Positions 8,080 through 47,241 of a DNA stretch of 64,000 nucleotides are shown piece by piece. The translations under genes and the position numbers were made by a program. This stretch comes from Dehalococcoidia bacterium (GTDB lineage: Bacteria > Chloroflexota > Dehalococcoidia > SM23-28-2 > RBG-16-64-32): the NCBI GenBank assembly GCA_030649945.1, contig JAUSFE010000040.1:26266-90265 (forward strand), given 5' to 3'. The first letter of the stretch is position 1; each line of letters begins with the position of its first letter. The notes beneath the pieces are model-generated. The model did no database searches and was not told the origin of the DNA. It was given only the letters and a program-made list of their open reading frames with translations.

Positions 8080-8205
8080 AGCAGCGGTCAGTGGTCAGCG
8101 GTCAGCCAGCAGCGGCGGGGGCGACAGCGCCGCGGATGACCAATGGGAGTTCGAAGCTGACCGCTGAACGCCGGCGGCTGACCGCTAAAGGCTGATCGCT
8201 GGTCG

Positions 8206-8556: not shown

Positions 8557-8563
8557 GACGGGC

Positions 8564-10196: not shown

Positions 10197-10206
10197 GCTT
10201 GCCGTC

Positions 10207-10515
10207 TCCAACATACCTCGGCTGTCTCCCGCGGTACGTTGAGCGCGGCGCCATCCCGTCTGTCATCCCGAGCGCGACGACGTCTGCCACGTGGCTCTCC
10301 GCAGCTTCGCGAGGGATCTGGGGTGGGGCAGACCTGCGAGTGTAGGGGCGCAGCACACGCGGCAGCGGCCGGATATCACGCCTTCATCAGGTCAAGACGG
10401 TGCGGCTCAGACGGCGGGACTGGCGCGTGCTGCGCCCTACGATGGCGCGCCCGAACCCCTCGTGTATGGTCTCTCGCCTCCAGGGAGCGCCATGGTAAGC
10501 CTGTTCTTCCGCCGC
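10207..10515. repeat. MITE-like dispersed repeat, copy A, flanked by 29-bp perfect direct repeats (10178-10206 and 10516-10544)
   Basis: Shares a conserved core of about 80 nt (gtcatcc.gagcgcgacgac..ctgccacgtggctct.cgcagcttcgcga.gggatctggggtggggcagacctgcgag) and terminal segments with 27790-28023. The flanking duplication cttccgccgcgccagctaggcttgccgtc includes the sigma-factor stop codon. Confidence 0.6.
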
Positions 10516-10618
10516 GCCAGCTAGGCTTGCCGTCGCGTCGCGGGCGCCTTTTCCCCATTTCTCCTTGCGCATTGCTATACTGGGGCTGGAACCCGGTCAG
10601 CAGTGAAGGAGGCCCCGC

Positions 10619-11632: not shown

Positions 11633-11644
11633 GGGCGCGTCACG

Positions 11645-12661: not shown

Positions 12662-12720
12662 CGGCCGGCGGCCGGGCTGTCAGAGGCTGATCGCTGATCG
12701 CTGACGGCTGGGCGCTTTGG

Positions 12721-12750
12721 TTGCCCTCTGGCGGCGCCCACCGTACAATA
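12721..12750 (+). promoter_or_regulatory. candidate promoter TTGCCC-17nt-TACAAT upstream of ffh
   Basis: Read directly from sequence, 14 nt upstream of the ffh ATG. Confidence 0.35.
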
Positions 12751-12763
12751 AGCTTTTGTAGAT

Positions 12764-14092: not shown

Positions 14093-14128
14093 GCCGATGA
14101 TCCCCTTAATCCACTTCGGAGGTGCTAA

Positions 14129-14638
14129 TTGCTACGAATCCGCCTGACCAGGGTAGGCAAGAGGAAACAGCCTTCCTACCGCATCGTCGTCGCTGACTCG
14201 CACGCCCCTCGCGACGGCGCGTTCCTGAAGATAATCGGCCACTACAACCCGCTCACGGACCCGGCCACGCTGGTAGTGAAGGAAGAGGAGGCCGTGGCCT
14301 GGCTTAAGCAAGGAGCGCAGCCCTCGGAGACTGCCGCGAAGCTCCTGACGCGGGCCGGCGTGATGGAGAAGGCCGGCAGAGCGCCGGTAAAGTACCAGGG
14401 CAAGGACTTCCCGCCCGGCAAGATGGCGAAGAAGGGCGAACCGGCGCCAGCGCCGGCCCCCGCGGCCACGGCCCCCGCGGCGGTCCCGGTAGCCGAGGCG
14501 CCGGCAGCCGAGGCCCCAGCAGCCGAGGTCCACGTAGACGAGACGCCAGCGGAGGCCGCCGTAGCCGAACCGCCGGCCGCCGAGCCCGCGCCTGAAGCAG
14601 AACCACCCCCGCCGGGCGGCGGGGAACCCACGGAGTAA
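14129..14638 (+). CDS. rpsP: 30S ribosomal protein S16 with long Ala/Pro/Glu-rich C-terminal extension
   Basis: TTG start. (M)LRIRLTRVGKRKQPSYRIVVADSHAPRDGAFLKIIGHYNP is a canonical S16 core of about 80 aa, followed by about 80 aa of PAPAPAAT.../AEAPAAE low-complexity tail. Confidence 0.9.
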   Translation: MLRIRLTRVGKRKQPSYRIVVADSHAPRDGAFLKIIGHYNPLTDPATLVVKEEEAVAWLKQGAQPSETAAKLLTRAGVMEKAGRAPVKYQGKDFPPGKMAKKGEPAPAPAPAATAPAAVPVAEAPAAEAPAAEVHVDETPAEAAVAEPPAAEPAPEAEPPPPGGGEPTE

Positions 14639-31364: not shown

Positions 31365-32336
31365 TCAAAGCCGTATCTCCTTCTCCAGCCAGTCGATCTT
31401 CTCGTTCTTTCGCCTCCAGAAGACGTCTTCCCAGATGTAGTGGACCGCGAGCATCGAGTACCTGCCGTACCGGCTCGTGATATCGTCCCTGATCAGGTCT
31501 GCCGGCACCAGCGGCCTCTTGTAGAAGAGGCGGGAGTAGATCTTCTGTTGCCAGGGGGCGATATGGTCGAACGTGTCGTACTGATGGCAAGCTTCAAACA
31601 ACAGAATGCGCGCACTTTCGGGACCAACTCCGTACAGCATCATCAGTTCCCGTTTGGCGTCGTCCTTATCCAGGCCTCGAATCCGGTCTTCATCCACCTT
31701 TCCTTCGGCGAAATCCTGCGACAAGCGCTTCACGAACTTTGCTCTGTACCCGATTTTCAAGTCTCGCAAGTCCTGTTCCGAAACGTTCGCGAGGTCTTCC
31801 GGCAGCCAGACTGCAAACATATTCCTGCCGTCAAACTCGAGTCTCGTGCCGTAGTTCTCGAGGAGTGCGCTCATCATCTGCACGGTCCTCCTCACAGTCG
31901 CATTCTGAAGGACCACGGCGACAATCAAGAGGTCATACAAGCCATGGGCTGTCGAATTCCGCATCCCCAACCACCTCTTGAAGACCGGGAAGAAGCACTT
32001 GTCGGCCTTCGCCAGTTTGTTGAACTCGCTCAGGTCGGCGTCCAGGTCGAAGCGCCAGACAATCTCGCGCTTGACGGTCTCTATCTCGCTGTCAAAAATC
32101 GCGCCGTCGTGGAAGACTGAGACCCCTAGACTGGGCTTTCCGGCTTCCGTCCTGTCCTCGACCTTCAATCCAAAGAGCTTCTTGCCCGCGCGGATCGCCT
32201 GCCAGTACTTGCCGGGCTCCCAGGCGCTCAACCCATCGGGGAAGTGAGACGGCTTGTGAAAAGTCCCGTCGAAATGGAACGGGGCCGAGGGCGCGACGAG
32301 GAACTCTGTGTTGTCCGGAAGTACCAGCGACTTCAC
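31365..32336 (-). CDS. HhH-GPD superfamily DNA glycosylase (AlkA/Ogg-like)
   Basis: LMMLYGVGPESARILLFEA helix-hairpin-helix plus downstream conserved Asp. The region has visibly lower GC than its surroundings. Confidence 0.7.
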   Translation of the reverse strand: MKSLVLPDNTEFLVAPSAPFHFDGTFHKPSHFPDGLSAWEPGKYWQAIRAGKKLFGLKVEDRTEAGKPSLGVSVFHDGAIFDSEIETVKREIVWRFDLDADLSEFNKLAKADKCFFPVFKRWLGMRNSTAHGLYDLLIVAVVLQNATVRRTVQMMSALLENYGTRLEFDGRNMFAVWLPEDLANVSEQDLRDLKIGYRAKFVKRLSQDFAEGKVDEDRIRGLDKDDAKRELMMLYGVGPESARILLFEACHQYDTFDHIAPWQQKIYSRLFYKRPLVPADLIRDDITSRYGRYSMLAVHYIWEDVFWRRKNEKIDWLEKEIRL

Positions 32337-34160: not shown

Positions 34161-34244
34161 GCACTGTCCACTACCCACTACCCACTACCCACTATCCACT
34201 ATCCACTATCCACTATCTCCACTATCCACCATCCACTATCCACT
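34161..34244. repeat. (CCACTAY)n heptanucleotide microsatellite (about 12 units) upstream of the GDPD gene
   Basis: actgtccactacccactacccactatccactatccactatccactatctccactatccaccatccactatccactag. Confidence 0.65.
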
Positions 34245-34258
34245 AGTACACTCATCCC

Positions 34259-34999: not shown

Positions 35000-35075
35000 A
35001 GGGGCGTAGCTCAGTTGGAAGAGCGGCGGTCTCCAAAACCGCAGGTCGGGGGTTCGAGACCCTCCGCCCCTGCCA
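35000..35075 (+). tRNA. tRNA-Trp (anticodon CCA), CCA encoded; integration target
   Basis: Acceptor AGGGGCG/CGCCCCT, anticodon loop CTCCAAA, T-loop GGTTCGAGACC. The 3' 45 nt are duplicated at 42907-42951. Confidence 0.92.
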
Positions 35076-35130
35076 CTAATTCGTATCTGAAATCGGCCTC
35101 AGAGCGCCGTCCAGTCCGCGAGCCGTGGGC

Positions 35131-35154
35131 GTTTGACAGCAGATTTGACAGCAA
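35131..35154 (+). repeat. putative integrase arm-type site (TTTGACAGCA x2), left end of element
   Basis: Identical 24-mer recurs at 42789-42812 near the other end, in the same orientation. Confidence 0.4.
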
Positions 35155-35271
35155 CCAGCGACGCAACGGGGTGCTAAACGCTCTCGGCCACGGCCACGAT
35201 CACCGCAGGGCAAGCCGCGCGAAGGCTTCAGTAGGTGATATCATCCTGACTTAAAGCAAGGAGATGCATCG

Positions 35272-35517
35272 ATGACACGGCTCTACTGGAAAGCCAAAGA
35301 CGCAATCGAATTCGCGCGGCGCTTCGAGGCGCTCTGCGATGCCACAAAGGGCACCCCTAATGCCCCGCTTGTGGACCGGCTCGGCGAGGTGCTGACCCTG
35401 GAAGGCACGGACACGACAGCGATCTTTCACACCCTCGCGAAGGGTGCCAGCGCGTCCCAACTCCAGGTCCTGCAGGACATCTACGAAGCCGAAGGGTTCC
35501 AGGCTGACGGCTACTGA
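35272..35517 (+). CDS. hypothetical small protein (element cargo)
   Basis: 81-aa ORF, start preceded by AGGAGATG. No recognisable domain. Confidence 0.35.
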   Translation: MTRLYWKAKDAIEFARRFEALCDATKGTPNAPLVDRLGEVLTLEGTDTTAIFHTLAKGASASQLQVLQDIYEAEGFQADGY

Positions 35518-35801
35518 GCGGGACGCGCTCTTACCCGCCGAAACATAGGTTTCAGTCCCCGGCACCGTCCCAAATGTAGGCCGCAAGGGGTGGTTAGCCG
35601 GGCTCGCAACTACCACGGCCCGCTACCACGCCCCGCACGGGGCGCAGCCGCGCCAGGCGCACGGCAGGCCACTACCCCCCCCTTCATTTTCCCCGGAGTT
35701 GTTGTCGGCAGACTTCATTGCAGCCTGCAAGGAAGTGGTTTCGCCGTCACGCTTGCCCTGCTCGCGTTCCAGTTCTGCTAATAGCGCCCCGCCAAGACTA
35801 G

Positions 35802-36404
35802 TTAGCGCTGCAACACGCTGAGCGGCGGGTCCGCTACCTGTAGGCGCGCCGCTGCCATGATCCGCGCGCCGTGATGGGCCACGAAGGCGCTTGCGTAGTC
35901 GCTGGCCGCCGCCTCTTGCTGCTCGTAAGTCGCGCCGGGATGTAGTGGGGTGTAGTGCAGATGATGGACTTCATGGGCCACGGTGCGAACGGAGGATTCA
36001 GCGTCCTGTTCGGCGCTAACCCAGAACTGCCCGCGCTCCCATAGGGCGACGCCGGTCAACTCAACGTCGGAGGTAATGAGGACTCGCCCGCTGCCGCCAA
36101 ACGCCTCGAAGTAACCCATATCGCCCGCCACGTTAAGCTCGTCACCGGCCAAAAAGTGCGCGTATTCCGTGGCGGCCTTTAAGAGCGCCGGCGGCGAGTG
36201 ACAGCGCCCATACTTGAAGGTAGCGGCCTGACTGGCGGCGACGGCGAGTACGGAGATGACAGGTCTTAGCGGCACTTCCACGCGATACGGCTTCGATTGC
36301 TCCTTGACGATTGCCCGCGCTCTTTCGAGAATGTCGCCCGAGATCAGCCCCGGCGGAAGAGCCGGGCGGAAGAGCGACGGCGGGTCCGCGTATCGCAGTG
36401 TCAT
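35802..36404 (-). CDS. putative zinc metallopeptidase (HExxH; ImmA/IrrE-like?)
   Basis: VAHEVHHLHY contains HEVHH. About 200 aa. Its location in a mobile element fits an anti-repressor-type peptidase. The family assignment is an inference. Confidence 0.4.
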   Translation of the reverse strand: MTLRYADPPSLFRPALPPGLISGDILERARAIVKEQSKPYRVEVPLRPVISVLAVAASQAATFKYGRCHSPPALLKAATEYAHFLAGDELNVAGDMGYFEAFGGSGRVLITSDVELTGVALWERGQFWVSAEQDAESSVRTVAHEVHHLHYTPLHPGATYEQQEAAASDYASAFVAHHGARIMAAARLQVADPPLSVLQR

Positions 36405-37072
36405 TTCGCCTCTCCCGCCTGGGCAATCATCGCCCTCAACGCGGCGAGCCTTCCGGCGACTTCGCCAGCACTGAGCGCTTCCAACTTCAGCGCTTCCGCC
36501 TGCAACCGGGCCTCGTTGATCGCTGCCAACTGGGCTTGCACGGCTTCCCCGTTGCCAGTAAGCGGCGAGCGCTGTTCCGTCACCAGGTTCAGCGTCCCGC
36601 CTGAGACATTGATTGGAGTCCGGCGGACTTGCTCGAAGAGGACGCTCAGCTCGCCCAGGAACGCGGCGATCTCGGGGTCCGCCGTCGCCTCAAGCTCCGC
36701 ACTCAGCGCGTCACGCTCGCGGGCGAAGCGGGCGCGAAGGTTGCTCTCCACAATGGCGGCCTCCCGGAGCGCGGCCGTCGCCGTCTCCACCGCCGTCTGT
36801 GCAGCTCCCACGCGGGCCTGGGCTTTGGCGCGGGCGTCAACGAGTGCAGGTAACGCCGCCTCAAAGTCCGCCGTCAGCGCTGCTATCTGCACCGCCTTTG
36901 CCTTGCGGAGTGCGAGCTGCTCTCGGGCGTCTTCCTCGATGATTCTTTGCCCAATCGGCCCGGAAGTCAGCCTGTCCAAAACCCTTTGCGTGAGCGTTGG
37001 GTTTGTCATGTTGTTGCCCCTTTCCTGGCTAGTCGTTTGGTTCGTACTCCGGTCATGTACCTCGTGCGACAC
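36401..37072 (-). CDS. hypothetical coiled-coil protein
   Basis: Ala/Glu/Leu/Arg-rich heptad-like sequence. Start may be the internal MTNPT (37009). Confidence 0.4.
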   Translation of the reverse strand: MSHEVHDRSTNQTTSQERGNNMTNPTLTQRVLDRLTSGPIGQRIIEEDAREQLALRKAKAVQIAALTADFEAALPALVDARAKAQARVGAAQTAVETATAALREAAIVESNLRARFARERDALSAELEATADPEIAAFLGELSVLFEQVRRTPINVSGGTLNLVTEQRSPLTGNGEAVQAQLAAINEARLQAEALKLEALSAGEVAGRLAALRAMIAQAGEAK

Positions 37073-37379
37073 CGAGGGGGGTGCCTCTCGTCTTCCCCAA
37101 CAGCAGGCGAAGGCGGGCCTCGGCGGCAGCGATGCGCGAATTAGTCGCCTTCAGCCGGTCCTTCCAGCGCGTGCCGTACACGTACCGCGTGTATTCGTCG
37201 TCTGGCAGGGTGCGGTAGTGGCTGGCGTCTGCCTCCAGGGAGCTGAGAAGGCGTTGGACGCGCCGGACCTCGTAAGCCGCGGCCTGCCTGCATATCTCGC
37301 CGCAGAACAGTCGCGGGCGTCCCGTCTTTGGTTGCTGAAGAGCCGTTCCGCACTTGGCGCAACCTAGTTTCTCAGACAT
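37053..37379 (-). CDS. hypothetical zinc-ribbon protein
   Basis: MSEKLGCAKCGTALQQPKTGRPRLFCGEICRQ has a CxxC...CxxxC arrangement. Start at the internal Met of the track ORF. Confidence 0.4.
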   Translation of the reverse strand: MSEKLGCAKCGTALQQPKTGRPRLFCGEICRQAAAYEVRRVQRLLSSLEADASHYRTLPDDEYTRYVYGTRWKDRLKATNSRIAAAEARLRLLLGKTRGTPLGVARGT

Positions 37380-37473
37380 GACCCCCCCTGCCGAATACGC
37401 GGGCAAAAACGCGGCGCTGCACACCGTATTAGAAGCGATGGCAGGCCCAGCGATTTGGCCCGGATATTGGGGG

Positions 37474-37815
37474 TTAGGACCATCGCCCACCGTCCCTCAG
37501 GCGCTCCGTCGCACTCTTCCGGGAATGACAGGAGTGGCAAAGGCTTTCCAGCCCCGCCGGGTCGAGGCGCGCGCCCCCCTGGCTCACGGGACGTACATGA
37601 TCCACCTGCTCGGCCGGCTTGCCGCATCGGACGCAGGTCGGGTTAGCCGCGATGTACGCGTCCCTGACCTTCCGCCAGTCCGGGCCATAGACACCGCGCC
37701 GCAGTGGGTTGCGGCCGCGTTCATAACTGGCCAGGTGCTCGGCGCATAACCCGCCCCGCTTGGCCGGGTGCGAACAGGCGGAGAGCCGACACGGGGTGTT
37801 CACGCGGCTCGGCAC
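37474..37815 (-). CDS. HNH endonuclease
   Basis: CVRCGKPAEQVDHVRPVSQGG...LESLCHSCHSRK: HNH motif with a zinc-binding Cys quartet. Confidence 0.8.
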   Translation of the reverse strand: MPSRVNTPCRLSACSHPAKRGGLCAEHLASYERGRNPLRRGVYGPDWRKVRDAYIAANPTCVRCGKPAEQVDHVRPVSQGGARLDPAGLESLCHSCHSRKSATERLRDGGRWS

Positions 37816-38021
37816 TTCAACCCCCCAACCCGTACACAGAGAAATCTGCGATCACGGCGTATTAGAAGCATGGCAGCCACAGCAATTGCAGGCCACCTAT
37901 GGGGGTTGACCACGCACCTCAGCCGGCGGGGCCGCCGCCGCCCAGACAGCGAACCCCGCCGACTGCGGAGGAGGGAGATGAACCGTAGTTGTCTTTTGGT
38001 ATCGCCTGCGGGCCGTCGTCA

Positions 38022-38318
38022 TCAGAACGCCTCCGGTCCGGCACAGCGGTCACAATGAACCAGGACAAGCACATCGACGGGTAGGTGCGCCGCGCCGAAG
38101 TAGACATCTTGAGCCCGGCGGCGAGCGTCAGCGGGTTGCAGACTGACTCCGCAGCTATCACACGAGAGCGGCCCCGGCAGTGGACGCCGGAAGGCGCTTG
38201 CCGCGAGCGCGAGGTATTCCCGGTCCCGCCGCTCAAGCTCACGATCTCTATCGGAAGGCGGGCGGTCTTCGTATCCCTCGAATGGGGCGGCCAGCAGGGT
38301 CACGCCCGCAACTCCCAA
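38022..38318 (-). CDS. hypothetical protein
   Basis: 98-aa ORF overlapping the primase gene end by 19 nt. Weak. Confidence 0.25.
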   Translation of the reverse strand: MGVAGVTLLAAPFEGYEDRPPSDRDRELERRDREYLALAASAFRRPLPGPLSCDSCGVSLQPADARRRAQDVYFGAAHLPVDVLVLVHCDRCAGPEAF

Positions 38319-40468
38319 CTCGCGGCGTAGCCCGGCGCCTCGGGGTCCGCGTCGTCACAACAGGGCGCCCACTCCTGGGCAGGCGGCCGCCGGGCGATGA
38401 TGGGCAGGCCGGACCCTTCGACTCCGGCCCGGACCAGCGGCCCGTCCGTCTCCTGCAGGTAGTGCGCGAAGCATCGGGGCGTGCCATCGGGGGCGTAGCC
38501 TTCGATTTCGGGCGAGCCGCAGATGCAGACGGAGGACAGGGGGGGCTGTTGGGCCTTGTCGCCCATCCCTGAAAGAACAGCAACCCCGGTAACAAGAGCA
38601 ACTTCGTTCGTATCTATGGTTGCTCTTTCTTCCTTAGTTGCTCTTGTTTCAAGGTAGCGAGAGAACGCATCCTCGAACTGTTGCGCCTGATACCCCTTCG
38701 GTTTCTTTCCGTCGTAGTCAATCGTCTTGGCTTTGATACCGAACTGCCGCAGACGCCAGCCCAGCCGGCGAGTGTCTAGCGGCTTGCTGTTCAAGTCTCC
38801 CCAGGGCGCATCCTCTATGACAACCAGCTCCGCCACCAGGTTGGCGATGGTGATCTTGTCCCTGCCCGTGATGATGGTCTGTATGTCGCTCAGGAGCCGC
38901 ACACCCAAACTATTGTCCTCGCGGCCATCCCCAACGCTGAGCGCCAGCGCCGCCGCCCTCGCACGTTGCGGCCAGTCCCCGCCTGCCAAGTCCGCGATGG
39001 CGAGTAGTGGTTCCCATCCGTCAGCAGCACGATCGTCTAACTCTAGTAGGTCGGGCTGAGCATCCGTCAGCGCAGGCAGAGCGGATAACGCCCATGCTTG
39101 CAAGAGCTGGCGCAACGGCTCCGCTTCGGTCTGAGCGTGACGCCAACGGAACCGAGCCACGGTTTCCCCAGGAGCGCGACGCTTTAGGATGATGGTGATT
39201 GAGCGGTCGCTGATCGTATCCGGCAGTCGCCCGATGCCAGCAATCGCCTTCGCTCCAAAGACTGGAAAGTCCTTAACCTCCATTGAGGCACCTTGACCAA
39301 CGCAGAGTGTGGCGCAACCGCCTCTGCGATGCCCGTTATTGAGGATGCCCCGGAGCGCTTCGCTGAACTCCGCCGGACCTTTGAACGCCGCGTCTGACTC
39401 GTCTATCAACGCTGTCACTCCGTCGCCCATCTTGCGAACCAGCGCCGCCGCCGTGGTCCTGCCGGTCAACCACGGGTGGGCTACTACGTGAACCAGGGTT
39501 TCTAGCAACCGCGTCTTGCCTGATCTCTTCTCCGCCGACGTTACTTCGAGGTAAGGCGTACTCTCCGCCGCGTCCAGCGCCCACGTATGAGCCGTCCAGA
39601 GTGCGAGCGCGTCCGCCTGAGCGTCCGCCAGGGCCACGTATCGGCGGATGATAACGCGCACGTCGTCCAGCAGCGCGGCCAGGTCCGCTTCCCCCGGCGC
39701 CCAGGGCACCGCCGCATCTAGGAGCTGGCGAAGAGCGTCATCATTCCCCAGGTAGTCGGCAGCATCGCCCTTATCGGGAGCGTCCGGCCAGTCCACGGTC
39801 CGCACGTCCGCGCACCCCAGCCGGGCCAGCGCGTCGGCGATACGCTGCATGTGTAACCGGCCAGGTTCGTCGTTGTCAGGCCACAGGGCGACGGAGAGCC
39901 GCACAAGTGGCCCCAGAGCATTGTGCCCCGGCGTCCCCGCCGCGCCCGTCACCGAACCCACGGCGGGGATACCGCGAGCCGTGAGAGCTTCCGCCGCTTT
40001 CTCGCCTTCCGTCAGGACTACGCGGGCGCCGTCAGGGAGATCGGCCAGCCGCACCGTGAAGTACAGCGGCAGCGCCGATACTGGCAGCCCGCCCAGGCCC
40101 ATTGAGCCGCCGGGCCGCTCCCAGCCGAACTTCTTATCGCCGTGGGGAAGATCACGCCGGATATGGACGGCCACCAGCTCGCCGCCAGTGTCCCGAATCT
40201 CGTAGCGTGTCTCGCGCGGCTTCGGCTTGCGCCCGTTCCTTGACGGCGGCGACGGCCACAAGCCGCGTTCCGTCAAGGCGGCGATCACGGCGTCCTGCGA
40301 GCATCCCGCGAAGTCCTTGACTAGCACCTTGCCGTCCTTGCCGGTGCCCACGGCCAGACTGGGCGTCTCATCGGCGTGGGAAGGGCAGTGAACCTTGCCC
40401 TTCGCCCGCTGGCACTCGCAGCCTGAGCGGCCACAGGCAAGGGCCTGGGCGATCTCGGAGGCAGTCAC
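38300..40468 (-). CDS. DNA primase/replication protein (N-terminal zinc-binding, TOPRIM, C-terminal DUF3631-like domain)
   Basis: CECQRAKGKVHCPSH zinc motif. TOPRIM VVLTEGEKAAEAL...LWPDNDEPG. C-terminal segment LEVTSAEKRSGKTRLLE...IDESD resembles the DUF3631 found on actinobacterial integrative elements. Confidence 0.75.
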   Translation of the reverse strand: MTASEIAQALACGRSGCECQRAKGKVHCPSHADETPSLAVGTGKDGKVLVKDFAGCSQDAVIAALTERGLWPSPPSRNGRKPKPRETRYEIRDTGGELVAVHIRRDLPHGDKKFGWERPGGSMGLGGLPVSALPLYFTVRLADLPDGARVVLTEGEKAAEALTARGIPAVGSVTGAAGTPGHNALGPLVRLSVALWPDNDEPGRLHMQRIADALARLGCADVRTVDWPDAPDKGDAADYLGNDDALRQLLDAAVPWAPGEADLAALLDDVRVIIRRYVALADAQADALALWTAHTWALDAAESTPYLEVTSAEKRSGKTRLLETLVHVVAHPWLTGRTTAAALVRKMGDGVTALIDESDAAFKGPAEFSEALRGILNNGHRRGGCATLCVGQGASMEVKDFPVFGAKAIAGIGRLPDTISDRSITIILKRRAPGETVARFRWRHAQTEAEPLRQLLQAWALSALPALTDAQPDLLELDDRAADGWEPLLAIADLAGGDWPQRARAAALALSVGDGREDNSLGVRLLSDIQTIITGRDKITIANLVAELVVIEDAPWGDLNSKPLDTRRLGWRLRQFGIKAKTIDYDGKKPKGYQAQQFEDAFSRYLETRATKEERATIDTNEVALVTGVAVLSGMGDKAQQPPLSSVCICGSPEIEGYAPDGTPRCFAHYLQETDGPLVRAGVEGSGLPIIARRPPAQEWAPCCDDADPEAPGYAASWELRA

Positions 40469-40659
40469 CGGACGGCGTCCGCCGTAGCTTCGGCCAGGAG
40501 CCGCGCCGCGTAGGCGTCAACCTCAGCCGTACTCACCCGGACCGCGCGGCCGATCCGGACCGCGTGCAACTCGTTCGCCGTGAGAAGCTCGTACAGCTTC
40601 GAGCGCCCCAGCGACAGCCTGGAAGCCGCAGCCGGGATTGTCAGCAAGATTTGTTCCAT
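40465..40659 (-). CDS. excisionase/DNA-binding HTH protein (Xis-like)
   Basis: 64 aa. AASRLSLGRSKLYELLTANELHAVRIGRAVRV is a helix-turn-helix typical of MerR-like excisionases. Overlaps the primase start. Confidence 0.6.
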   Translation of the reverse strand: MEQILLTIPAAASRLSLGRSKLYELLTANELHAVRIGRAVRVSTAEVDAYAARLLAEATADAVR

Positions 40660-40746
40660 ATCGTCGCCTCCCTGGGGGTAGTGTTTTTACTCGTTCGCCA
40701 TACTCACGTTGACACAGGGCAAGCGCCGTGGCAATATACAGAGGAT

Positions 40747-41676
40747 ATGCAACCGTCCGAAGAGACGTCCGACTTTCTGGAGATGGACAGCCCGCTCGCG
40801 GGCTACTGGTTCAAGCCGGACGCCGGGTTCGAGTGGGCCAGGCCGGGCGTGCCGGTATACGACGAACGCGGCCAGCCTGTGCCTGACAAGGGGCCGTGGT
40901 TGGTGCCAAGAGGGGATACCGGGACTCGCTATGCCGTGCTGCGCCGGAGCCGTCTCCTGCCCGCGTTCGCCGATCTGGGCCGCAACGCCTCGCCCGAGCG
41001 CGTCCTTACGTTCGCGAACGAATGGGGGCCGCTCGGCCAGGGCGAATGCAATGTTGGGAAGCGGTCAGGCGCGTCGCTCAATACGTGGGGCGCTCACGCC
41101 CGCAAGGTTGCGACCCTCTGTCACCTATGGGAATGGGTCCGGCTGGGAGATACCGAGCGCCTGGAGCCGTACATCCGCTGGCAGTCGCGCCCGGCGATGG
41201 TGAGCATAGCGTTAGTGTCCGTGAACGGTTTGCCCGACGCCGGGCGTTCAGCCCGGATGACTGGTGTCGGGGCGCTTCCGCCCAACTCTTGGGGGCCGGT
41301 CTACACTCTCGCGAGCGCATCCCATGACCCGAACGGCTTTCTGCGCCAGTGGGAGCATGGCGACCCTGTGGAGCCGATGCGCTACTATGTCTGCCAGTCC
41401 GTGAATCAGGCGTTGGAAGGGCACATTAACCGGGCCGTCCTGCCGTACTACGGCTACGCCGTCCGCTACTTCCCGGACTCCCTGCTGAGCGCCGTATACC
41501 TACGCCTCCAGGACCGGATAGCGGGCGCTGTCCGCCAGGAGCGCCAATGCACGGCTCCGGGGTGCCCGCAAGGGCGATTCATACCGGGGCGCAGCGATCA
41601 ACAGTATTGCAGCAACCTCTGCAGGAAGCGGGCGCACTATCACGCCCAGAAGGAAGGTAAGAGTGATGGCAGGTAA
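40747..41676 (+). CDS. hypothetical protein with C-terminal Cys-rich (zinc-finger-like) tail
   Basis: Start at MQPSEETS. C-terminal CTAPGCPQGRF...YCSNLCRKRAHYH. Overlaps the integrase start (operon). Confidence 0.45.
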   Translation: MQPSEETSDFLEMDSPLAGYWFKPDAGFEWARPGVPVYDERGQPVPDKGPWLVPRGDTGTRYAVLRRSRLLPAFADLGRNASPERVLTFANEWGPLGQGECNVGKRSGASLNTWGAHARKVATLCHLWEWVRLGDTERLEPYIRWQSRPAMVSIALVSVNGLPDAGRSARMTGVGALPPNSWGPVYTLASASHDPNGFLRQWEHGDPVEPMRYYVCQSVNQALEGHINRAVLPYYGYAVRYFPDSLLSAVYLRLQDRIAGAVRQERQCTAPGCPQGRFIPGRSDQQYCSNLCRKRAHYHAQKEGKSDGR

Positions 41677-42793
41677 GCGCGGGAACGCCGAAGGCACGAT
41701 CTACAAGCGCACAGATGGGCGATGGTGCGCCGCCGTGACGCTGGACGGGGGTAAGCGCCGGGCCTTCTACGGGGCCACCCGTGGGGCCGTCCAGGACAAG
41801 CTCAGGGCCGCGAAGCGGGCGATAGACGACGGCCTGCCCGTTAGCTCCGACCGCCAGAAGGTCGGCCATTTCCTTACCCGATGGCTGGCCGAAGTCGCGC
41901 AGCCGACAGTCCGCCCGAGCACATACACCCGCTATCGCGAGCTGCTCACCGGCCACGTGGTCCCCGCGCTCGGCCATCTGCCGCTCGCGAAGCTCGGCCC
42001 CCAGGACTTGAACGCCCTTTACGGGAAGCTCGCGCAGCGCCTCGCGCCCCGCACAGTCGGCCACGTCCACCGCGTCTTGCACCGGGCTCTCCGCGATGCC
42101 CTCCATTGGGGGCTTGTCGCCCGCAACGTCTGCGACGCCGTGAGTCCGCCGAAGGTCGCACGTGCGGAGATGCAGGTTCTCGGCCCTGAACAGGCCCGCG
42201 CCCTGATCGCCGCCGCTGCTGGCGACCCTCTGGAAGCGGTCTACACGCTGGCGATCTTAACCGGACTCAGGCAAGGCGAATTGCTGGCGCTGAAATGGCG
42301 CGACTTCGACGCTGGCGCTGAACGTCTTACCGTCTGCCGCAGTGTGCGATGGGTGACTGGCCTGGGGTCAGTTGAGGGTGAGCCTAAGACGCGGAGCGGG
42401 CGCCGCAGTGTACTACTCGCGCCCCTAGTCGTCGCCGCTCTCAGACGGCACAGGACGCAGCAAACCGAGCAGCGATTACGGGCCATCGCGTGGGAGGACA
42501 ACGATCTGATTTTCACTAACGAGATAGGCCGCCACATCGAAGCAAGCAACCTGCTCCGCCGGTCATTCCGGCCCCTGCTCGAACGGGCCGATCTGCCGCG
42601 AATCCGGTTCCACGATCTCCGCCATACCGCCGCGACACTCCTACTCGGCCAGGGAGTGCACGCCAAGATCGTCAGCGAGATGCTGGGGCATTCCAACATC
42701 GCCATCACGATGGACCTCTACAGCCACGTCACGCCGACGATGCAGGCCGACGCCGCCGCGAAGATGGAGGCGCTATTCACCGTCGCAGTTTGA
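41663..42793 (+). CDS. int: tyrosine-type site-specific integrase
   Basis: N-terminal SAM-like/arm-binding domain. Catalytic R...HDLRHTAATLLL...LGHSNIAITMDLYSHV (R-H-R-Y box). Confidence 0.92.
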   Translation: MMAGKRGNAEGTIYKRTDGRWCAAVTLDGGKRRAFYGATRGAVQDKLRAAKRAIDDGLPVSSDRQKVGHFLTRWLAEVAQPTVRPSTYTRYRELLTGHVVPALGHLPLAKLGPQDLNALYGKLAQRLAPRTVGHVHRVLHRALRDALHWGLVARNVCDAVSPPKVARAEMQVLGPEQARALIAAAAGDPLEAVYTLAILTGLRQGELLALKWRDFDAGAERLTVCRSVRWVTGLGSVEGEPKTRSGRRSVLLAPLVVAALRRHRTQQTEQRLRAIAWEDNDLIFTNEIGRHIEASNLLRRSFRPLLERADLPRIRFHDLRHTAATLLLGQGVHAKIVSEMLGHSNIAITMDLYSHVTPTMQADAAAKMEALFTVAV

Positions 42794-42812
42794 CAGCAGA
42801 TTTGACAGCAAC
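42789..42812 (+). repeat. putative integrase arm-type site, right end of element
   Basis: TTTGACAGCAGATTTGACAGCAAC, identical to 35131-35154. Confidence 0.4.
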
Positions 42813-42906
42813 GCGGGTGAACAACGACGGACGCGGGCGGACAAACGCCCGCGTTTTCGTATCTAAAACGGTTGTCTGTGAACGTCCCCGGACGCTATGG
42901 CGAGGA

Positions 42907-42951
42907 CTCCAAAACCGCAGGTCGGGGGTTCGAGACCCTCCGCCCCTGCCA
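42907..42951 (+). repeat. attR: 45-bp duplicate of the tRNA-Trp 3' end
   Basis: ctccaaaaccgcaggtcgggggttcgagaccctccgcccctgcca is identical to 35031-35075. Confidence 0.85.
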
Positions 42952-43052
42952 GTTACGAAATCGGCCCTCAGGAGCGCGCAGGATTGACCGAGGGTGTCAA
43001 CTGGCGGGCGCCGTACGGCTGAGGCGGCTCGTATCGCTACCCCTGCCGCGCC

Positions 43053-43772
43053 TTAGAGACTGTCGCCGCCGAGCTTGTGTTCAGGCTGGGGCGTCGTACG
43101 GAAATACGGCTTCAGTTGCTTGTAGCCCTGCGGAAAGAGCTTGTCAGCCTCCTCATTGCGGACGGAGGTCAGAATCACAACGTCATCGCCAAGCTGCCAG
43201 TTCGCGGGTGTCGCGACCTGGTGGTCATCACCAAGCTGCAACGAGTCGATAACTCGCAACACCTCGTCGAAGTTGCGTCCCGTCGAGGCAGGATAAGTGT
43301 GTATTAGACGCACCGACTTCTTCGGATCGATGATGAACACGGATCGCACCGTCTCGGCGGCGTGGGCGTTTGGGTGAATCATGTCATACAACTGTGCGAC
43401 CTTCCGGTCCGCATCAGCAAGCAAGGGAAAGTTGAGCTCCACTCCCTGGGTCTCGGCGATATCGCCCGCCCACATCTCATGGTAGAAAAGAGGATCGACG
43501 CTGAGGCCGATCGCCTTCACGTTGCGTTTGTCGAATTCTGGCTTGAGGCGTGCCACCATTCCCAGTTCGGTCGTGCAAACTGGCGTAAAGTCACCGGGGT
43601 GCGAGAAGAGAACTGCCCAGCTATCACCCATCCACTCGTAGAAATGGATGGCCCCCTGCGTTGAATCCTGTATGAAGTCTGGGGCCTTGTCTCCCAGTCT
43701 CAGAGACGGTGATGGCCGGATGTCTATCTGAGGGCCGGCGCGACGCTCTGCCGCCGCCGTCGCCGCGCGCAT
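43053..43772 (-). CDS. 1-Cys peroxiredoxin (Prx6-like)
   Basis: FTPVCTTE peroxidatic Cys motif. C-terminal VATPANWQLGDDVV typical of 1-Cys Prx. The ATG at 43772 gives about 20 extra N-terminal residues and no canonical start is nearer. Confidence 0.85.
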   Translation of the reverse strand: MRAATAAAERRAGPQIDIRPSPSLRLGDKAPDFIQDSTQGAIHFYEWMGDSWAVLFSHPGDFTPVCTTELGMVARLKPEFDKRNVKAIGLSVDPLFYHEMWAGDIAETQGVELNFPLLADADRKVAQLYDMIHPNAHAAETVRSVFIIDPKKSVRLIHTYPASTGRNFDEVLRVIDSLQLGDDHQVATPANWQLGDDVVILTSVRNEEADKLFPQGYKQLKPYFRTTPQPEHKLGGDSL

Positions 43773-44077
43773 GGTCTCGAATTCCCTGGCCTTCTCAGCG
43801 CCGTATTCGTGATGGGATAGCAAAGCTCGCCCCCGGCCTTCTGTGCAGATTCCCTGCACGGTTTTCTAGGTTGTCTTCCTGGGCACGTTTTTCGTTAAGA
43901 TACTGCACCGAGAACCCCCAGGTCAAGCGAAGTTGTGGGGGAAACCCTTACAGACTAAGCATTCTTGTGGGGTACAGTCTTACAGGCCAACGGCCACTCT
44001 GGGACAGCGATGTCTGCTGCCCGTCATAGCTAGCGAACGCCGTGCCTGACGCCAAGACGACCGCAGGCCTGTCCTGA

Positions 44078-44136
44078 GCCCGTCGAAGGGTCGCGGGTTC
44101 GGGCCAACGCCCGCCCGTCGGGGCGAATCCTGCCGC
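44078..44136 (+). repeat. degenerate tRNA-Trp 3'-half-like element (att remnant), copy 1
   Basis: gggtcgcgggttcgggcc[aacgcccgcccgtcggggcga]atcctgccgcccctgccaga. The ends match tRNA-Trp gtcgggggttcgag...ccgcccctgcca around an internal insertion. Confidence 0.5.
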
Positions 44137-44230
44137 CCCTGCCAGACTCCGCTTTCCGGCGCGCTGGTGTCGCCGCCGGCCATAGGCGGGTTCGGCGAAG
44201 AGGAACAGACAAAGCGAATGGCGTCTGAGA

Positions 44231-44548
44231 TCAGCGCAGTTGGTACGCCGACGCGGGCGCGGTCATAGCTGTCTCCGCGGGCGTGACCCTGGGTCCGTGC
44301 GCCGTAGTCAGGATCGGCGTGAATGGTACGACCGATGGGTGGCCAGCCGGAACCGCTTGTATTGCGGCCTCCCGCACAAATTCCGACGTCCTCTTGCCAA
44401 TCCTGGCCGCATACGACGAAACTCGCTGAAACTCGGGACTCTTGAACGCCACCGACAGCACAACGCGGCGGTTTCTGACAGGGGGCCGCGCTTCTGCGCT
44501 ATCCCAATCCCATTCTTTCGAGTCCTGGATTTGTTGGCGTGGGCTCAT
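44231..44548 (-). CDS. RHH-type antitoxin (BrnA-like)
   Basis: RRVVLSVAFKSPEFQRVSSYAARIGKRTSEFVREAA is a ribbon-helix-helix. ATGA overlap with the upstream toxin gene. Confidence 0.55.
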   Translation of the reverse strand: MSPRQQIQDSKEWDWDSAEARPPVRNRRVVLSVAFKSPEFQRVSSYAARIGKRTSEFVREAAIQAVPAGHPSVVPFTPILTTAHGPRVTPAETAMTAPASAYQLR

Positions 44549-44850
44549 AACTTGCCTCCCTTCTGCTTCAGTTTGGCTTCCTCGTAACCTTTGGATGGCC
44601 ATGCAGTAACTGGTCTCCATATCGTTGGGTCGTTCGTCGCCTCTACCGGTACGCTTATGCACTTGCCGCCGTGATCTAGTCCAATGATGAGGAAGGCTCC
44701 TCTGCGGTTGCGCCGGTTCGGGACAACCAGATGGCGATTCTCGAGGATCTGCTCCACCTGATGTGCATAGACGTGATTCCTATTGAACTTGCGCTCGTTG
44801 GTGTCATCGATCAGGAAGCTCCGGATATCTGGTGTTGACAACGCCGACAT
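44545..44850 (-). CDS. BrnT-like (DUF497) ribonuclease toxin
   Basis: 101 aa. GAFLIIGLDHGGKCISVPVEATNDPTIWRPVTAWPSKGYEEAKL matches the BrnT pattern (core beta-sheet, R..SAR.A...E C-terminal block). Confidence 0.55.
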   Translation of the reverse strand: MSALSTPDIRSFLIDDTNERKFNRNHVYAHQVEQILENRHLVVPNRRNRRGAFLIIGLDHGGKCISVPVEATNDPTIWRPVTAWPSKGYEEAKLKQKGGKL

Positions 44851-44903
44851 CCTTCTACTACAGTTTGTAGTGCAATTGTAGTATCACCAGCGAGGGATGT
44901 CAA

Positions 44904-45332
44904 ATGAAGCTTGAATGGCTAATACTTGGGGACTTCGTACAAGTAGTGGGCGGAAAGCTCTACCTTATGGGAGGCGGCTGGGATGTGCTGACCGTCAATC
45001 AGCCTCTTCCGCTGCCGCAACCGATGGGAGTCGCTGCGTCGTTTGTTGTCGGGTGGAATGAGACCAACGAGCAGCACACCGTGGAAATCGAAATCGCCAA
45101 CGAGAGAGGCGAGAGCCTCGCGAAGATTGCCGCGACAATGGAGGTTGGACGGCCGCCGGGCATTGCGCGTGGGCGGGATCAAAGAGCTCAGGTGGCGGGA
45201 AACCTCGTTCTGCAGATCCGGGAGCTAGGAACTTACACGATCACCGCGAGAATCGAGGGGCAAGAGGAGGGGAAAACGACCTTTACGGTCATTTCAGGTC
45301 CGCTGTTCACCAGTAAGCAGGAAAGTTCGTAG
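44904..45332 (+). CDS. hypothetical protein
   Basis: 142 aa, non-repetitive, lower GC than the chromosome. No recognisable domain. Confidence 0.45.
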   Translation: MKLEWLILGDFVQVVGGKLYLMGGGWDVLTVNQPLPLPQPMGVAASFVVGWNETNEQHTVEIEIANERGESLAKIAATMEVGRPPGIARGRDQRAQVAGNLVLQIRELGTYTITARIEGQEEGKTTFTVISGPLFTSKQESS

Positions 45333-45368
45333 CAGTGGCCAACTGCCGTTGAGTCATGCGCTGGCCAG

Positions 45369-45393
45369 GCCACCCGTGATCTTGGCGCACAGC
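45369..45393 (+). repeat. 25-bp direct repeat (copy 1) bracketing the 45578-47173 insertion
   Basis: gccacccgtgatcttggcgcacagc is identical to 47191-47215. Confidence 0.5.
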
Positions 45394-45397
45394 GCCC

Positions 45398-45456
45398 AGG
45401 TCGCGGGTTCGGGCCGACGCCCGCCCGTCGTGGCGAATCCTGCCGCCCCTGCCAGA
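45398..45456 (+). repeat. degenerate tRNA-Trp 3'-half-like element (att remnant), copy 2
   Basis: 59 nt with 3 mismatches to 44078-44136. Ends ccgcccctgcca. Confidence 0.5.
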
Positions 45457-45577
45457 CGCCTTCCCGCGCGCCGGCGTCGCCGCGCCGAACCAACGGCGAT
45501 GGCGGGCGGGCAGCTTGACGGCCGTCGGGCACCGCGGATCATCCGGACCAGAGGAGAACTCCGGAACCTCGCCTGAT

Positions 45578-47173
45578 ATGATTCCGCACATGAGTTTTGC
45601 TCCATATTTCCCGTCGACTTGGGGCAGCTATGGGGAGGCCACGTTCGACGAACTCGCCGAAGCAGTCGGTCGTTACCGCCCGAGTGACATTCTGCTGCAC
45701 GTGGCGCAGTGGACAACAACGCTCGACGACTACCAACACAAGCATGGCAACGTCCCGATGCCCGTGGACTTGCCCCGTAGTGTGTGGAGGAGTGGTAGCT
45801 ACCAGGGGATCAATGTTGCCCATCATTTGCTGGCCCTCGTCGCACGAATGTCCTTGCTTAGAGGGAGCGAGCTAGCACCAGGGTCTACGACGGAAGAATC
45901 GTTTCTAAGGCTCCTACGCTTAGGCTGCGAACTTTTCGATCCAGCGGATAGTGTAGCCAACCCCGAATATGAGCTGCGAGTCGCCTACGAACAGTCGCCA
46001 TACCAAGAGGCATTGTGGCAGCCATTGGCGCGTGCCAAGCTGATGTATCTCGACGCGTGCCGCGCTCTTGATAGTCCTGAAATGGATATCGACGTGGAGT
46101 TCCGGAAGGTCTGTGGCCTCTCGATTGAGAACTTCGTGGCGATCGGATTTTGCCTGTTCGCGCAGCTCTGGTCGGACCCTGTGTTCTATCCTCTCGTGGG
46201 CTGGCATACAAGCGTCCCCGGTTTGCGCGACGTCTTAACGAAAGAGAACGTGACTGCCTTCCTTAGGGCCGTAGCAGCGGATCGACCGCGCTTTCGGAAC
46301 GAGGACGCGGCTCTACGCCCGGCCGGGGCCGCTGAGAGCCGATATGACTTCAACCCACTCGTCAAGTACCCGGTCATCGACCTTGGGAACGGGAAGTGCA
46401 TGGCGCCGATGCGAAACCTCGTTGTTTGGCGACTCTACACGGCCCCATTCTACGAATTGGCTGACGTCTTCATGGAAGAAGGTGCCAAAAACCCCTTCAG
46501 AGCGTTTTTCGGCCACGTGTTCCAGAGTTACGTAGGACTCCTGCTGCGGGACGCGGTGCCTAGTCAGGACATATTCCCGGAGCTGGGAGACAACGCCGCG
46601 GGCCCAGCGGACTGGGTGGTGCGTGTCGGCAGTCACGCGATCGTCATCGAGTGCAGAACCGGAGACTTCTCGTTGTCCGCAAAGTCTACGGGAGGGCTCG
46701 CGCTGATCGACGCCGATCTCCGAAAGATCGCAGTAAATACGATCAAGAAGCTCCCCACCAAGATCGCTGCGCTTCAGCAGAACGCCCAAGCCTATGGGCT
46801 CACCGGTATCGACACATGGCATGCTTTGGTTGTGTTGAAGGAGCCCTTGCTACCAGTCGCGCGCATCAGGGCACTGATCGATGCCGAGCTCAACAGGCCA
46901 GTGGCCTACCACCTCCTCTCAACTGGGGACTTCGAGCAATTGATGGCCCTGCATGATGCCGTCGGAATCCATCAGGTTCTCTCCGACAAAGCAGCCGCTG
47001 GTGAGATGGAAAAAGACTTTCGCACCTTCTTCCACGAGCGCCGCAAGGTCTACGAGTTTCGTCGGAATCCCCTTCTCGAGCGAACGTCCAACGAGTTCTT
47101 TGCGAAGTTTGGTGTGCTGACGGACCGCGCATCCAGCACAACTAGTGGTGCCGGGCGCATGGCTTCCCCATGA
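45578..47173 (+). CDS. hypothetical protein (low-GC insertion; possible PD-(D/E)xK-like nuclease)
   Basis: About 530 aa. Visibly AT-richer codon usage. DWVVRVGSHAIVIECRTGD is weakly reminiscent of a restriction-endonuclease-like core. No confident domain. Confidence 0.45.
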   Translation: MIPHMSFAPYFPSTWGSYGEATFDELAEAVGRYRPSDILLHVAQWTTTLDDYQHKHGNVPMPVDLPRSVWRSGSYQGINVAHHLLALVARMSLLRGSELAPGSTTEESFLRLLRLGCELFDPADSVANPEYELRVAYEQSPYQEALWQPLARAKLMYLDACRALDSPEMDIDVEFRKVCGLSIENFVAIGFCLFAQLWSDPVFYPLVGWHTSVPGLRDVLTKENVTAFLRAVAADRPRFRNEDAALRPAGAAESRYDFNPLVKYPVIDLGNGKCMAPMRNLVVWRLYTAPFYELADVFMEEGAKNPFRAFFGHVFQSYVGLLLRDAVPSQDIFPELGDNAAGPADWVVRVGSHAIVIECRTGDFSLSAKSTGGLALIDADLRKIAVNTIKKLPTKIAALQQNAQAYGLTGIDTWHALVVLKEPLLPVARIRALIDAELNRPVAYHLLSTGDFEQLMALHDAVGIHQVLSDKAAAGEMEKDFRTFFHERRKVYEFRRNPLLERTSNEFFAKFGVLTDRASSTTSGAGRMASP

Positions 47174-47190
47174 GTAAACTGTGCTGCCTG

Positions 47191-47215
47191 GCCACCCGTG
47201 ATCTTGGCGCACAGC
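47191..47215 (+). repeat. 25-bp direct repeat (copy 2)
   Basis: Identical to 45369-45393. Confidence 0.5.
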
Positions 47216-47241
47216 TTCCCGCTATCCGGGCCGGCCGCCCG

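Follow-up and report, generated by a model that had tools for sequence, protein, structure and literature searches.

We analyzed a 64,000-nucleotide stretch of DNA (the window) from a Dehalococcoidia bacterium of the phylum Chloroflexota (contig JAUSFE010000040.1) and identified an integrative element of 7,876 bp at a tRNA-Trp gene. The element appears to be intact, self-replicating, and site specific in its integration, and with moderate confidence we read it as most likely a minimal phage satellite. Its backbone, which comprises genes for an integrase (int), an integrase-coupled protein (g309), a helix-turn-helix (HTH) protein, and a primase, looks intact. Its satellite status is something we infer from the genes it carries, those it lacks, and those of its relatives.

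The boundaries of the insert are exact. An intact tRNA-Trp(CCA) gene lies at 35000-35075 on the forward strand (ARAGORN; Rfam tRNA, 66 bits), and tRNA alone was matched in an Rfam scan of 34.5-47.5 kb. The 3′ 45 nt of this gene (35031-35075) are the attL core, and an exact repeat search placed the attR core, a 45-bp copy of the tRNA 3′ half, at 42907-42951 on the same strand. The repeat (CTCCAAAACC...CCCCTGCCA) spans the anticodon loop to the CCA end and occurs exactly twice in the window, with 45 of 45 positions identical. No further match was found in the 64 kb at up to three mismatches, and none in 100 shuffles. An earlier annotation made from the letters alone (the sequence-only reading) had described a perfect 45-bp duplication of the tRNA-Trp 3′ end delimiting a 7.9-kb insert, and this is what we find: counting one core copy, the insert is 35076-42951. 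The tRNA gene was regenerated by the insertion, being intact while the direct repeat bounds the insert. The attR copy has no tRNA function to keep it and is still identical, which suggests recent insertion or continuing excision and reintegration. The excised circle is predicted to join 42951 to 35076 (...GGCGAGGA, the 45-bp core, then CTAATTCGTATCTG...), and the emptied site would read tRNA-Trp followed by GTTACGAAATCGG....

The sequence-only reading had suggested looking for an empty tRNA-Trp site in related genomes, and we found one. In a Dehalococcoidia metagenome-assembled genome (MAG; locus L193, GDPD 70% identical), the flank GRDB-197aa-GDPD-tRNA-Trp has one core copy and host genes downstream. 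At two other loci (L194 and L195) the tRNA-Trp is absent from that position, which makes them uninformative on this point. The empty site contradicts conservation of the segment as core genome, the outcome that the sequence-only reading had named as telling against a mobile element. A host segment flanked by repeats through chance or misassembly could be suspected from the MAG origin of the contig and from bulk GC near that of the host, but we regard this as extremely improbable. A perfect 45-mer has zero chance expectation, the same architecture recurs at eight other tRNA genes (seven other amino-acid types), and 5.25 kb of the element were recovered independently in a Logan assembly of run SRR13727527. 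The Logan contig ends within the attR core, where a repeat would be expected to interrupt assembly. Base composition also argues for foreign DNA. Bulk GC is 65.2% in the element, 66.5% in the window, and 67-73% in adjacent host DNA. GC at third codon positions (GC3) is 0.71-0.81 in element genes versus 0.90-0.95 in flanking host genes (on the whole ~0.75 and ~0.92), clearly foreign to the host. The earlier statement that host-like GC marks the element as no recent arrival is thus not upheld, given this GC3 difference and the undecayed attR. The element is a discrete mobile insert at tRNA-Trp, not core genome.

The tyrosine integrase (376 aa; 41663-42793, forward strand) matches Phage_integrase (PF00589, 2e-22) and phrog_1 (6e-74). 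All catalytic residues are present (R203, K242, H317, R320, H343, and Y353), as are the catalytic motifs TGLRQGE, EPKTRSG, HDLRHT, LGHSNI, and DLYSHV. The N terminus carries an (R)ANGEGS-IYKR-DGRW segment typical of arm-binding domains, and the relative at locus L041 scores with Arm-DNA-bind_3. Candidate arm-type sites were located by a repeat search as two forward-strand pairs, the P′-arm pair at 35131-35155 and the P-arm pair at 42788-42812, which begins at the int stop codon. The pair sequence GTTTGACAGCAGATTTGACAGCAAC is identical at both element ends. The sequence-only reading had noted such identical arm-like repeats, and their conservation in relatives supports it, but the length is 25 nt rather than the 24 nt given. 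There are four exact TTTGACAGCA units, all in the two arm blocks, with no other exact copy in the window. In the predicted circle the core would lie between two TTGACAGCA pairs, one ~95 nt upstream and the other ~55 nt downstream.

Relatives inform the role of these repeats. The P′-arm repeat is conserved in three of them (L001, L013, and L125), and the L001 element has both the arm repeats and the 45-bp core. TTGACAGCA pairs of equal 12-nt spacing stand at either end of the L013 element (target tRNA-Lys, integrase 53% identical), and they adjoin int in L125 with the same spacing. Because the pairs are conserved across integrases of different core specificity, they behave as expected of arm-type sites, and this conservation backs their identification as such. 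We ruled out that the arm repeat is a leftover integrase 3′ end, since elements with other tRNA targets also keep it at both arms.

Overlapping int by 14 nt is g309 (40747-41676, forward strand), whose product has a C-terminal four-Cys zinc ribbon. A word-indexed search recovered only 4 relatives; an exhaustive profile search (E <= 1e-3) recovered 2,033 cluster representatives, a family count of ~2,000 that refers to clusters at 50% identity. No member has a solid Pfam match, and matches to zf-CGNR are marginal. The cysteines C268, C273, C288, and C292 are invariant or nearly so. An AlphaFold (AF2) model from 67 sequences reached pLDDT 93 and pTM 0.85, where an earlier model from 4 sequences was poor (pLDDT 58), and its fold matches were weak, to the DUF1470/CGNR protein 3h0n. 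In 12 of 13 genomic contexts the g309-type gene directly precedes or overlaps a tyrosine integrase gene, with an overlap of 4-26 nt where gene calls exist. We infer that g309 acts as an accessory factor or regulator of the integrase. Across L196, L197, L201, and L202 and loci L001, L012-L014, L076, L111, and L112, the gene nearly always stands directly upstream of an integrase gene of the Phage_int_SAM_3 type, mostly overlapping it, and its other side holds differing replication modules; L197, from a sample shared with the window, has a g309-type gene without a DUF3631 primase.

Divergent from g309, the leading gene of a leftward operon encodes an Xis/AlpA-type HTH_17 protein (40465-40659, reverse strand; PF12728, 2.5e-10; TIGR01764, 3e-12; phrog_66). 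In the putative divergent control region between the two genes (40660-40746), TTGACA-17 nt-CAATAT and GAGGA were read upstream of g309; a promoter scan made no call in this interval.

The operon continues with a primase-initiator (722 aa; 38300-40468, reverse strand) that consists of an N-terminal CHC2-like zinc finger, a TOPRIM domain, a DUF3631/RepAM domain, and a variable tail. DUF3631 (PF12307) matches at 1.5e-53 with full profile coverage, and PHROGs of TOPRIM-type primases match at 1e-15 to 1e-16. The TOPRIM residues E154 and D198xD200 are invariant, and the DUF3631 domain has a Walker A GKT (317-319) and a DESD motif (356-359). Catalytic residues or motifs, whose loss the sequence-only reading had named as the mark of a degenerate remnant, are therefore present in both integrase and primase. 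At one zinc-finger ligand position the protein has an aspartate (D52, window position 40315) where at least 90% of relatives have Cys and some others, such as P0068, have Asp; the substitution may be tolerated, or zinc binding may be weakened.

PF12307/DUF3631 is RepAM, the initiator of pMEA300 (PMC3218068), an actinomycete integrative and conjugative element (AICE). Purified RepAM binds identical 8-bp repeats that make up a hairpin inside the 3′ end of the gene encoding it, a putative origin (PMC2440964). Within the primase gene of the window element we identified a candidate counterpart (38565-38655, reverse strand) with two direct and two inverted 8-bp repeats (AGAGCAAC x3 and ACAGCAAC, spanning 38577-38644) and a hairpin. 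The coding strand from 38655 to 38565 reads AAGAGCAAC...AGAGCAAC-CAT AGATACGAA CGAA-GTTGCTCTT...GTTGCTGTT, with AGATACGAA held in the 16-nt hairpin loop. As single-stranded DNA it folds at -19.6 kcal/mol (z = -3.8). The L001 and L111 elements have repeats of their own (AACCGACAC / GTGACGSTTTC), with the same loop motif at the same position in the gene. As the repeat hairpin equals the published RepAM architecture, the region is assigned as the putative replication origin. The loop motif differs, being AGATACGAA here and a CTTGAT-like site in the pMEA300-type RepAM origin (PMC2440964).

The loop motif is the reverse complement of a 9-mer, TTCGTATCT, that occurs three times in the window, always within the element. 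By motif search, one copy is 5 nt past the attL core in the P′ arm (35080-35088, forward strand), one is in the origin loop (38607), and one is ~50 nt before the attR core (42856-42864). Running into this last copy is a GC hairpin (GCGGGCG-N6-CGCCCGC then GTTTT; 42833-42864 with the 9-mer, forward strand) that follows int and was read by eye as terminator-like. A terminator scan did not list this hairpin, and the promoter/terminator scan did no better than on shuffles. The chance expectation for the 9-mer, estimated from base composition, is ~0.02 copies per 7.9 kb. Placement is alike in L001, at the att arms and origin loop (7450, 7545, 11854, and 15552); in L111 the 9-mer was found in the origin region only (5702 and 5781). 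The HTH protein or g309 may bind the 9-mer, which would link excision with replication.

How the element is transferred is indicated in part by what it lacks. Among 81 six-frame stop-to-stop open reading frames (ORFs) of at least 60 aa, Pfam and PHROGs detected no capsid, portal, tail, terminase, relaxase, FtsK, or conjugation domain. The sequence-only reading had stated that capsid, tail, terminase, and conjugation genes are missing, and this holds across all frames. Only integrase, excisionase-type HTH, primase/DUF3631, and HNH families were matched, the same four protein types that had been recognized from the letters and that now have Pfam, PHROGs, and NCBIfam matches. Since the element has no gene for building a particle or a mating channel, we propose helper-dependent transfer.

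The only transfer-related gene encodes an HNH endonuclease (37474-37815, reverse strand; PF01844, 1.7e-9; phrog_144, 1.6e-23). Packaging HNH proteins of the HK97 gp74 type are small, encoded next to TerS(P27)-TerL, the terminase genes, and needed for cos cleavage; Kala et al. are said to have found in 2014 that HNH cooperates with TerS/TerL in cos cleavage in HK97-like phages. The window protein is probably of this phage-packaging-associated type, and full-length relatives occur in 660 phage records. In Klebsiella phage ST846-OXA48phi9.1 and Streptomyces phage Success the HNH gene is just upstream of TerS-TerL-portal, and the Klebsiella phage annotation assigns the adjoining TerS to the P27 family. 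In the window element no terminase gene adjoins HNH.

Related elements carry packaging genes. The L001 element, from another MAG, has a Dam methylase and a P27-family TerS (Terminase_4, 3e-28) after the primase, replacing g98, HNH, and g145 of the window element. An element in Acidobacteriota (L041, 7478-15352) is arranged int-205aa-primase-HNH-TerS-TerL, followed by a host gene, and no capsid gene was found in it. A 7.2-kb IMG/VR contig (L088, taken whole) is arranged int-primase-DUF3631-HNH-TerS-TerL and ends in TerL, and in Limnocylindria (L017, 7074-16075) an HK97-type capsid gene comes after HNH. The L041 element, which has terminase genes but neither capsid nor tail genes, is not an autonomous phage and fits a satellite. 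These three elements may represent families of satellites in Acidobacteriota and Limnocylindria. Of the HNH/TerS(P27) pair, the window element and L001 retain one piece each, which makes packaging by a helper phage the most economical route. The element probably spreads by hijacking such a phage.

On this reading, g309 and int, the rightward pair, would be expressed together. The N-terminal domain of the integrase would bind the TTGACAGCA pairs, and the enzyme would also bind the core and recombine attP with the tRNA gene. Induction would switch on the leftward operon (xis/alpA, primase, g98, HNH, g145, g223, and g200), the HTH protein would direct excision, and the circle would replicate from the hairpin origin. 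HNH, together with TerS(P27)/TerL of the helper, would then cut the element DNA for packaging into capsids made by the helper. The DNA would be packaged either as concatemers, as in the phage-inducible chromosomal minimalist islands (PICMI) discussed below, or in another way that the element does not itself encode.

Several observations weigh against a satellite. No helper phage, cos/pac site, TerS, capsid-size gene, or interference gene was found for the element. The HNH nuclease might, on its own, serve in homing or defence, and in one of the three phages inspected, Streptococcus phage Javan102, HNH follows replication genes and does not adjoin an annotated terminase. DUF3631/RepAM also serves conjugative AICEs, which makes the replicon non-discriminating. 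The sequence comes from a MAG, and the element is known in its integrated form alone. Host-flank identity between the window and L001 is ~70%, near the 76-78% of int and xis; divergence is thus alike in flank and element, and long vertical co-residence is conceivable. Finally, g145, g223, g200, and g81 have no assignable function. The satellite/PICI-like layout put forward in the sequence-only reading accordingly stands in part: the element has the PICMI layout, and its relatives have TerS, HNH-TerS-TerL, or capsid genes, but no helper, cos/pac site, or capsid-redirecting gene was found.

The shared replicon invites a different explanation, that this is a phage-independent integrative plasmid of the RepAM type, an AICE that lost or never had Tra, persists by integration with autonomous replication now and then, and moves, if at all, by a foreign conjugation system or by transformation. 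AICEs of the pMEA type use DUF3631 as their initiator, the origin is built like that of pMEA300, and a 14-kb Streptomyces plasmid, a true AICE, combines int-xis-DUF3631 with TraB/TraA. The absence of FtsK/SpoIIIE, relaxase, and conjugation domains from the 81 ORFs speaks against such a plasmid, as does an HNH that is probably of the phage-packaging-associated type. The relatives examined likewise lack a Tra/FtsK-type gene and have HNH, TerS, TerL, or capsid genes instead, and the AICE survey finds these elements in Actinomycetales only. We consider a plasmid of this kind unlikely.

The fuller modules of L041, L088, and L017 raise another alternative: the element may be the decaying remnant of a larger island with capsid or terminase genes, resembling the phage-inducible chromosomal islands that form capsids (cfPICIs) or phiRv, that still excises and replicates and is no longer transferred. 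Only HNH is left here of those packaging and structural modules, two stretches of 206 bp (37816-38021) and 284 bp (35518-35801) are non-coding, and foreign DNA has piled up at the locus, where more low-GC3 segments and degenerate att-like repeats lie to the right. Against decay, no pseudogene trace of TerS, TerL, capsid, or Dam came up below E = 0.03. The backbone genes are full length with catalytic residues, the attR is perfect, and neither the arm sites nor the origin repeats are damaged. The sister L001 is equally small (8.1 kb) with different intact cargo, which argues for a naturally minimal family. A remnant therefore seems to us distinctly improbable, and we return to the minimal satellite as the preferred reading.

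The family to which the element belongs is large. More than 1,700 primase relatives were found, mostly in Chloroflexota metagenomes, and the module int <- X | HTH_17 -> primase recurs among the fetched loci. The sister element at L001 occupies the same tRNA-Trp, with flank proteins 64-94% identical to those of the window. The identities of its gene products are 76% (int), 78% (xis), 57% (primase), 46% (g309), 45% (g223), and 31% (g200), and its cargo is partly different. Nine further elements of 6.3-14.9 kb are bounded by 37-49-bp tRNA 3′-end repeats (Trp, Val, Arg, Lys, Thr, and Gln). These elements have the integrase, HTH protein, and primase in common, and everything downstream of the primase is variable. 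Of the primase relatives, 24 lie in IMG/VR viral contigs, many of only ~7-15 kb. The cargo downstream of the primase in two larger elements was read by eye as defence-like, an Hsp70-like ATPase and a Ser/Thr kinase in L012 (14.7 kb; 6674-14459) and a type III restriction-modification pair in L013 (14.9 kb; 5623-14356). More specifically, and more tentatively, this could be an undescribed minimal-satellite lineage of Chloroflexota with relatives in Acidobacteriota and Actinomycetota. Such a lineage would rest on a fused zinc-finger-TOPRIM-RepAM replicon and on g309, a zinc-ribbon family not recognized before, translationally coupled to its integrase and without a Pfam model or close structural relative. 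As a functional analogue of the PICMI gene iolg, g309 would belong to the excision/integration switch, and the 9-mer would couple excision to replication.

Of the described systems, the PICMI of Vibrionaceae (PMC10803314) offer a close comparison in layout. They are modeled as colocalized int, AlpA (PF05930/PF12728), and primase genes, with iolg, a gene of unknown function that excision requires and that overlaps int (PMC10803314). In the window element PF00589, PF12728, and the primase lie within 4.5 kb. Both are small (~6-8 kb), both have an int-overlapping gene (iolg there, g309 here) divergent from a primase operon led by alpA/HTH_17, neither has capsid, terminase, or capsid-remodelling genes, and in both the cargo past the primase is variable. 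The primase, however, is TOPRIM plus DUF3631/RepAM here and DUF3987/DUF5906 in PICMI. The insertion site is a tRNA-Trp flanked by GDPD here rather than next to fis. The host belongs to another phylum, and an HNH nuclease is present. The iolg genes form 13 unrelated families, and g309 matches no named one. Helper dependence was demonstrated for PICMI and is proposed for the window element.

Typical phage-inducible chromosomal islands (PICIs) measure ~10-15 kb, and cfPICIs require capsid, portal, protease, and TerS/TerL. At 7.9 kb the window element is smaller than typical PICIs. It resembles PICIs and the Staphylococcus aureus pathogenicity islands (SaPIs) in its integrase, regulator/AlpA, primase-replicase with adjacent origin, and divergent regulation, but it has no terS, ppi, cpm, or capsid-morphogenesis gene (Pfam and PHROGs, all frames) and no recognizable Stl-type repressor. 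It has exactly the int, AlpA, and primase of the "Type C" PICIs of SatelliteFinder, a class flagged as ambiguous by its authors (PMC10085698). In L017, L041, and L088 the same replicon is accompanied by HNH, TerS, TerL, or capsid, a likeness to cfPICIs and to phiRv1/phiRv2, and in phiRv2 the RepAM homologue Rv2655c adjoins Xis and Int at a tRNA gene (PMC2440964). Of the set of capsid, portal, protease, HNH, TerS, and TerL, the window element has only HNH. With P4-like satellites it shares an integrase, a regulator of AlpA type, a tRNA site, and a large primase-initiator with TOPRIM that binds, or here is predicted to bind, repeats at its own origin. It differs from them in the C-terminal half of the initiator, which is RepAM and not the P4 alpha helicase, and in an unrelated host range. 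No homologues of Psu, Delta, Sid, or Ash/epsilon were detected in a PHROGs scan of the 81 ORFs, the SatelliteFinder profiles not having been run.

The likeness to AICEs of the pMEA300 type is limited to the Int and Rep modules. Shared are DUF3631/RepAM, a putative origin of 8-bp repeats in the 3′ part of rep (PMC2440964, PMC3218068), and a tyrosine integrase with Xis at a tRNA 3′ end. In the window element there are no genes for Tra (FtsK/SpoIIIE; PF01580), Spd, Kor, or Nudix proteins, a zinc finger and TOPRIM are joined to RepAM in one protein where AICEs pair it with Prim-Pol, and the host is a member of the Chloroflexota rather than the Actinomycetales. AICEs are defined by an FtsK/SpoIIIE-type Tra, and a survey found such elements only in Actinomycetales (PMC3218068). 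With no FtsK-like or relaxase gene in any frame, the element is not an AICE; the AICE-like character proposed in the sequence-only reading applies to the replication protein and not to the defining Tra. Because it departs in part from each of PICMI, PICI, cfPICI, and AICE, we file it as a satellite-like variant outside these families. It is a satellite-like integrative element and a member of no named family.

The remaining genes were delimited by codon-position GC and an independent gene call. Six, including g309, have no assigned family in Pfam, PHROGs, or NCBIfam. Just downstream of the primase, g98 (38022-38318, reverse strand; 93 aa in the Logan gene call) has no homologue beyond the same population. 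The product of g145 (37053-37490, reverse strand; start possibly M38, at 37379) has a zinc-ribbon motif (CxxC...FCGEICR) and then a probable long helix, and it matches phrog_2308, of unknown function, at 8e-5. This gene occupies the position of TerS in relatives; a divergent TerS was considered and dropped, the argument being positional only, with no TerS similarity detected. The alanine-rich g223 (36401-37072, reverse strand; helical by eye) has homologues in L001 (45% identity) and L125 (35%) and no family, PDB, or phage match. The g200 product (35802-36404, reverse strand) has an HExxH...E motif (AHEVHH) that is kept in the sole homologue found, in L001 (AHETKH). No Pfam, PHROG, PADLOC, PDB, phage, or peptidase-family match was found. 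The HExxH motif named in the sequence-only reading is thus real and conserved, the peptidase likeness finds no family behind it, and a small metallopeptidase is possible. A small ORF without family, g81 (35272-35517, forward strand), points inward from attL, and L001 has a non-homologous 69-aa ORF at its position. PADLOC defence profiles gave no credible match among the cargo proteins, and none of g200, g223, g309, and the primase gave a meaningful match when compared by sequence with PDB chains. Against 50,697 phage records, tblastn with g223, g200, and g309 found no match and with g145 one weak zinc-ribbon match.

To the right of attR is another stretch of foreign DNA (42952-47240; bulk GC 58-61%), whose genes between 43053 and 47173 have GC3 of 0.63-0.70. 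They encode a peroxiredoxin (43053-43859), a DUF6941 protein (44904-45332), and a 552-aa protein without family (45515-47173), and small ORFs are also present. The first bases past attR (GTTACGAAATCGGCC) resemble the P′ arm of the element itself, and the stretch may have been left by earlier insertions into this tRNA gene. Two direct repeats of 62 bp, 95% identical (44089-44150 and 45399-45460), bracket a 1.3-kb segment and resemble the T-arm and acceptor 3′ end of tRNA-Trp, split by a 24-nt insertion. A 49-bp pair, 80% identical (45364-45412 and 47186-47234), ends just before the host AtuA gene. These repeats may be degenerate att sites of other islands. On the corresponding side of L001 there are further integrases, a transposase, and a relaxase. 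Given the foreign DNA, the P′-arm-like bases, and the tRNA-Trp-like repeats, the tRNA-Trp gene looks like a repeatedly used landing site. Upstream of it, tandem 7-nt units (CCACTAT/CCACTAC, 14-nt spacing; 34161-34245) lie between a 198-aa gene and GDPD. An HhH-GPD family gene (31365-32336; GC3 0.79, local GC 57%) is missing from the L001 flank, which is syntenic apart from it, and probably arrived as another small insertion.

Little is known of the phages of Dehalococcoidia, bacteria that are difficult to grow in culture. Nearly all described phage satellites come from Proteobacteria and Firmicutes, and a few from Actinobacteria (PMC10085698); we found no description in the literature of a phage satellite in Chloroflexota. 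Should the element be no more than what remains of an integrative plasmid, it would be an ordinary genomic island. If its family does depend on a helper, satellite biology would extend to a major environmental phylum, and the RepAM replicon would be common to conjugative AICEs and phage-borne elements. The family would also provide compact parts for heterologous tests: an integrase, g309, Xis, a defined attP, and a small replicon whose origin is mapped. The g309 proteins constitute a large, uncharacterized set of integrase partners that may explain how such integrases are controlled.

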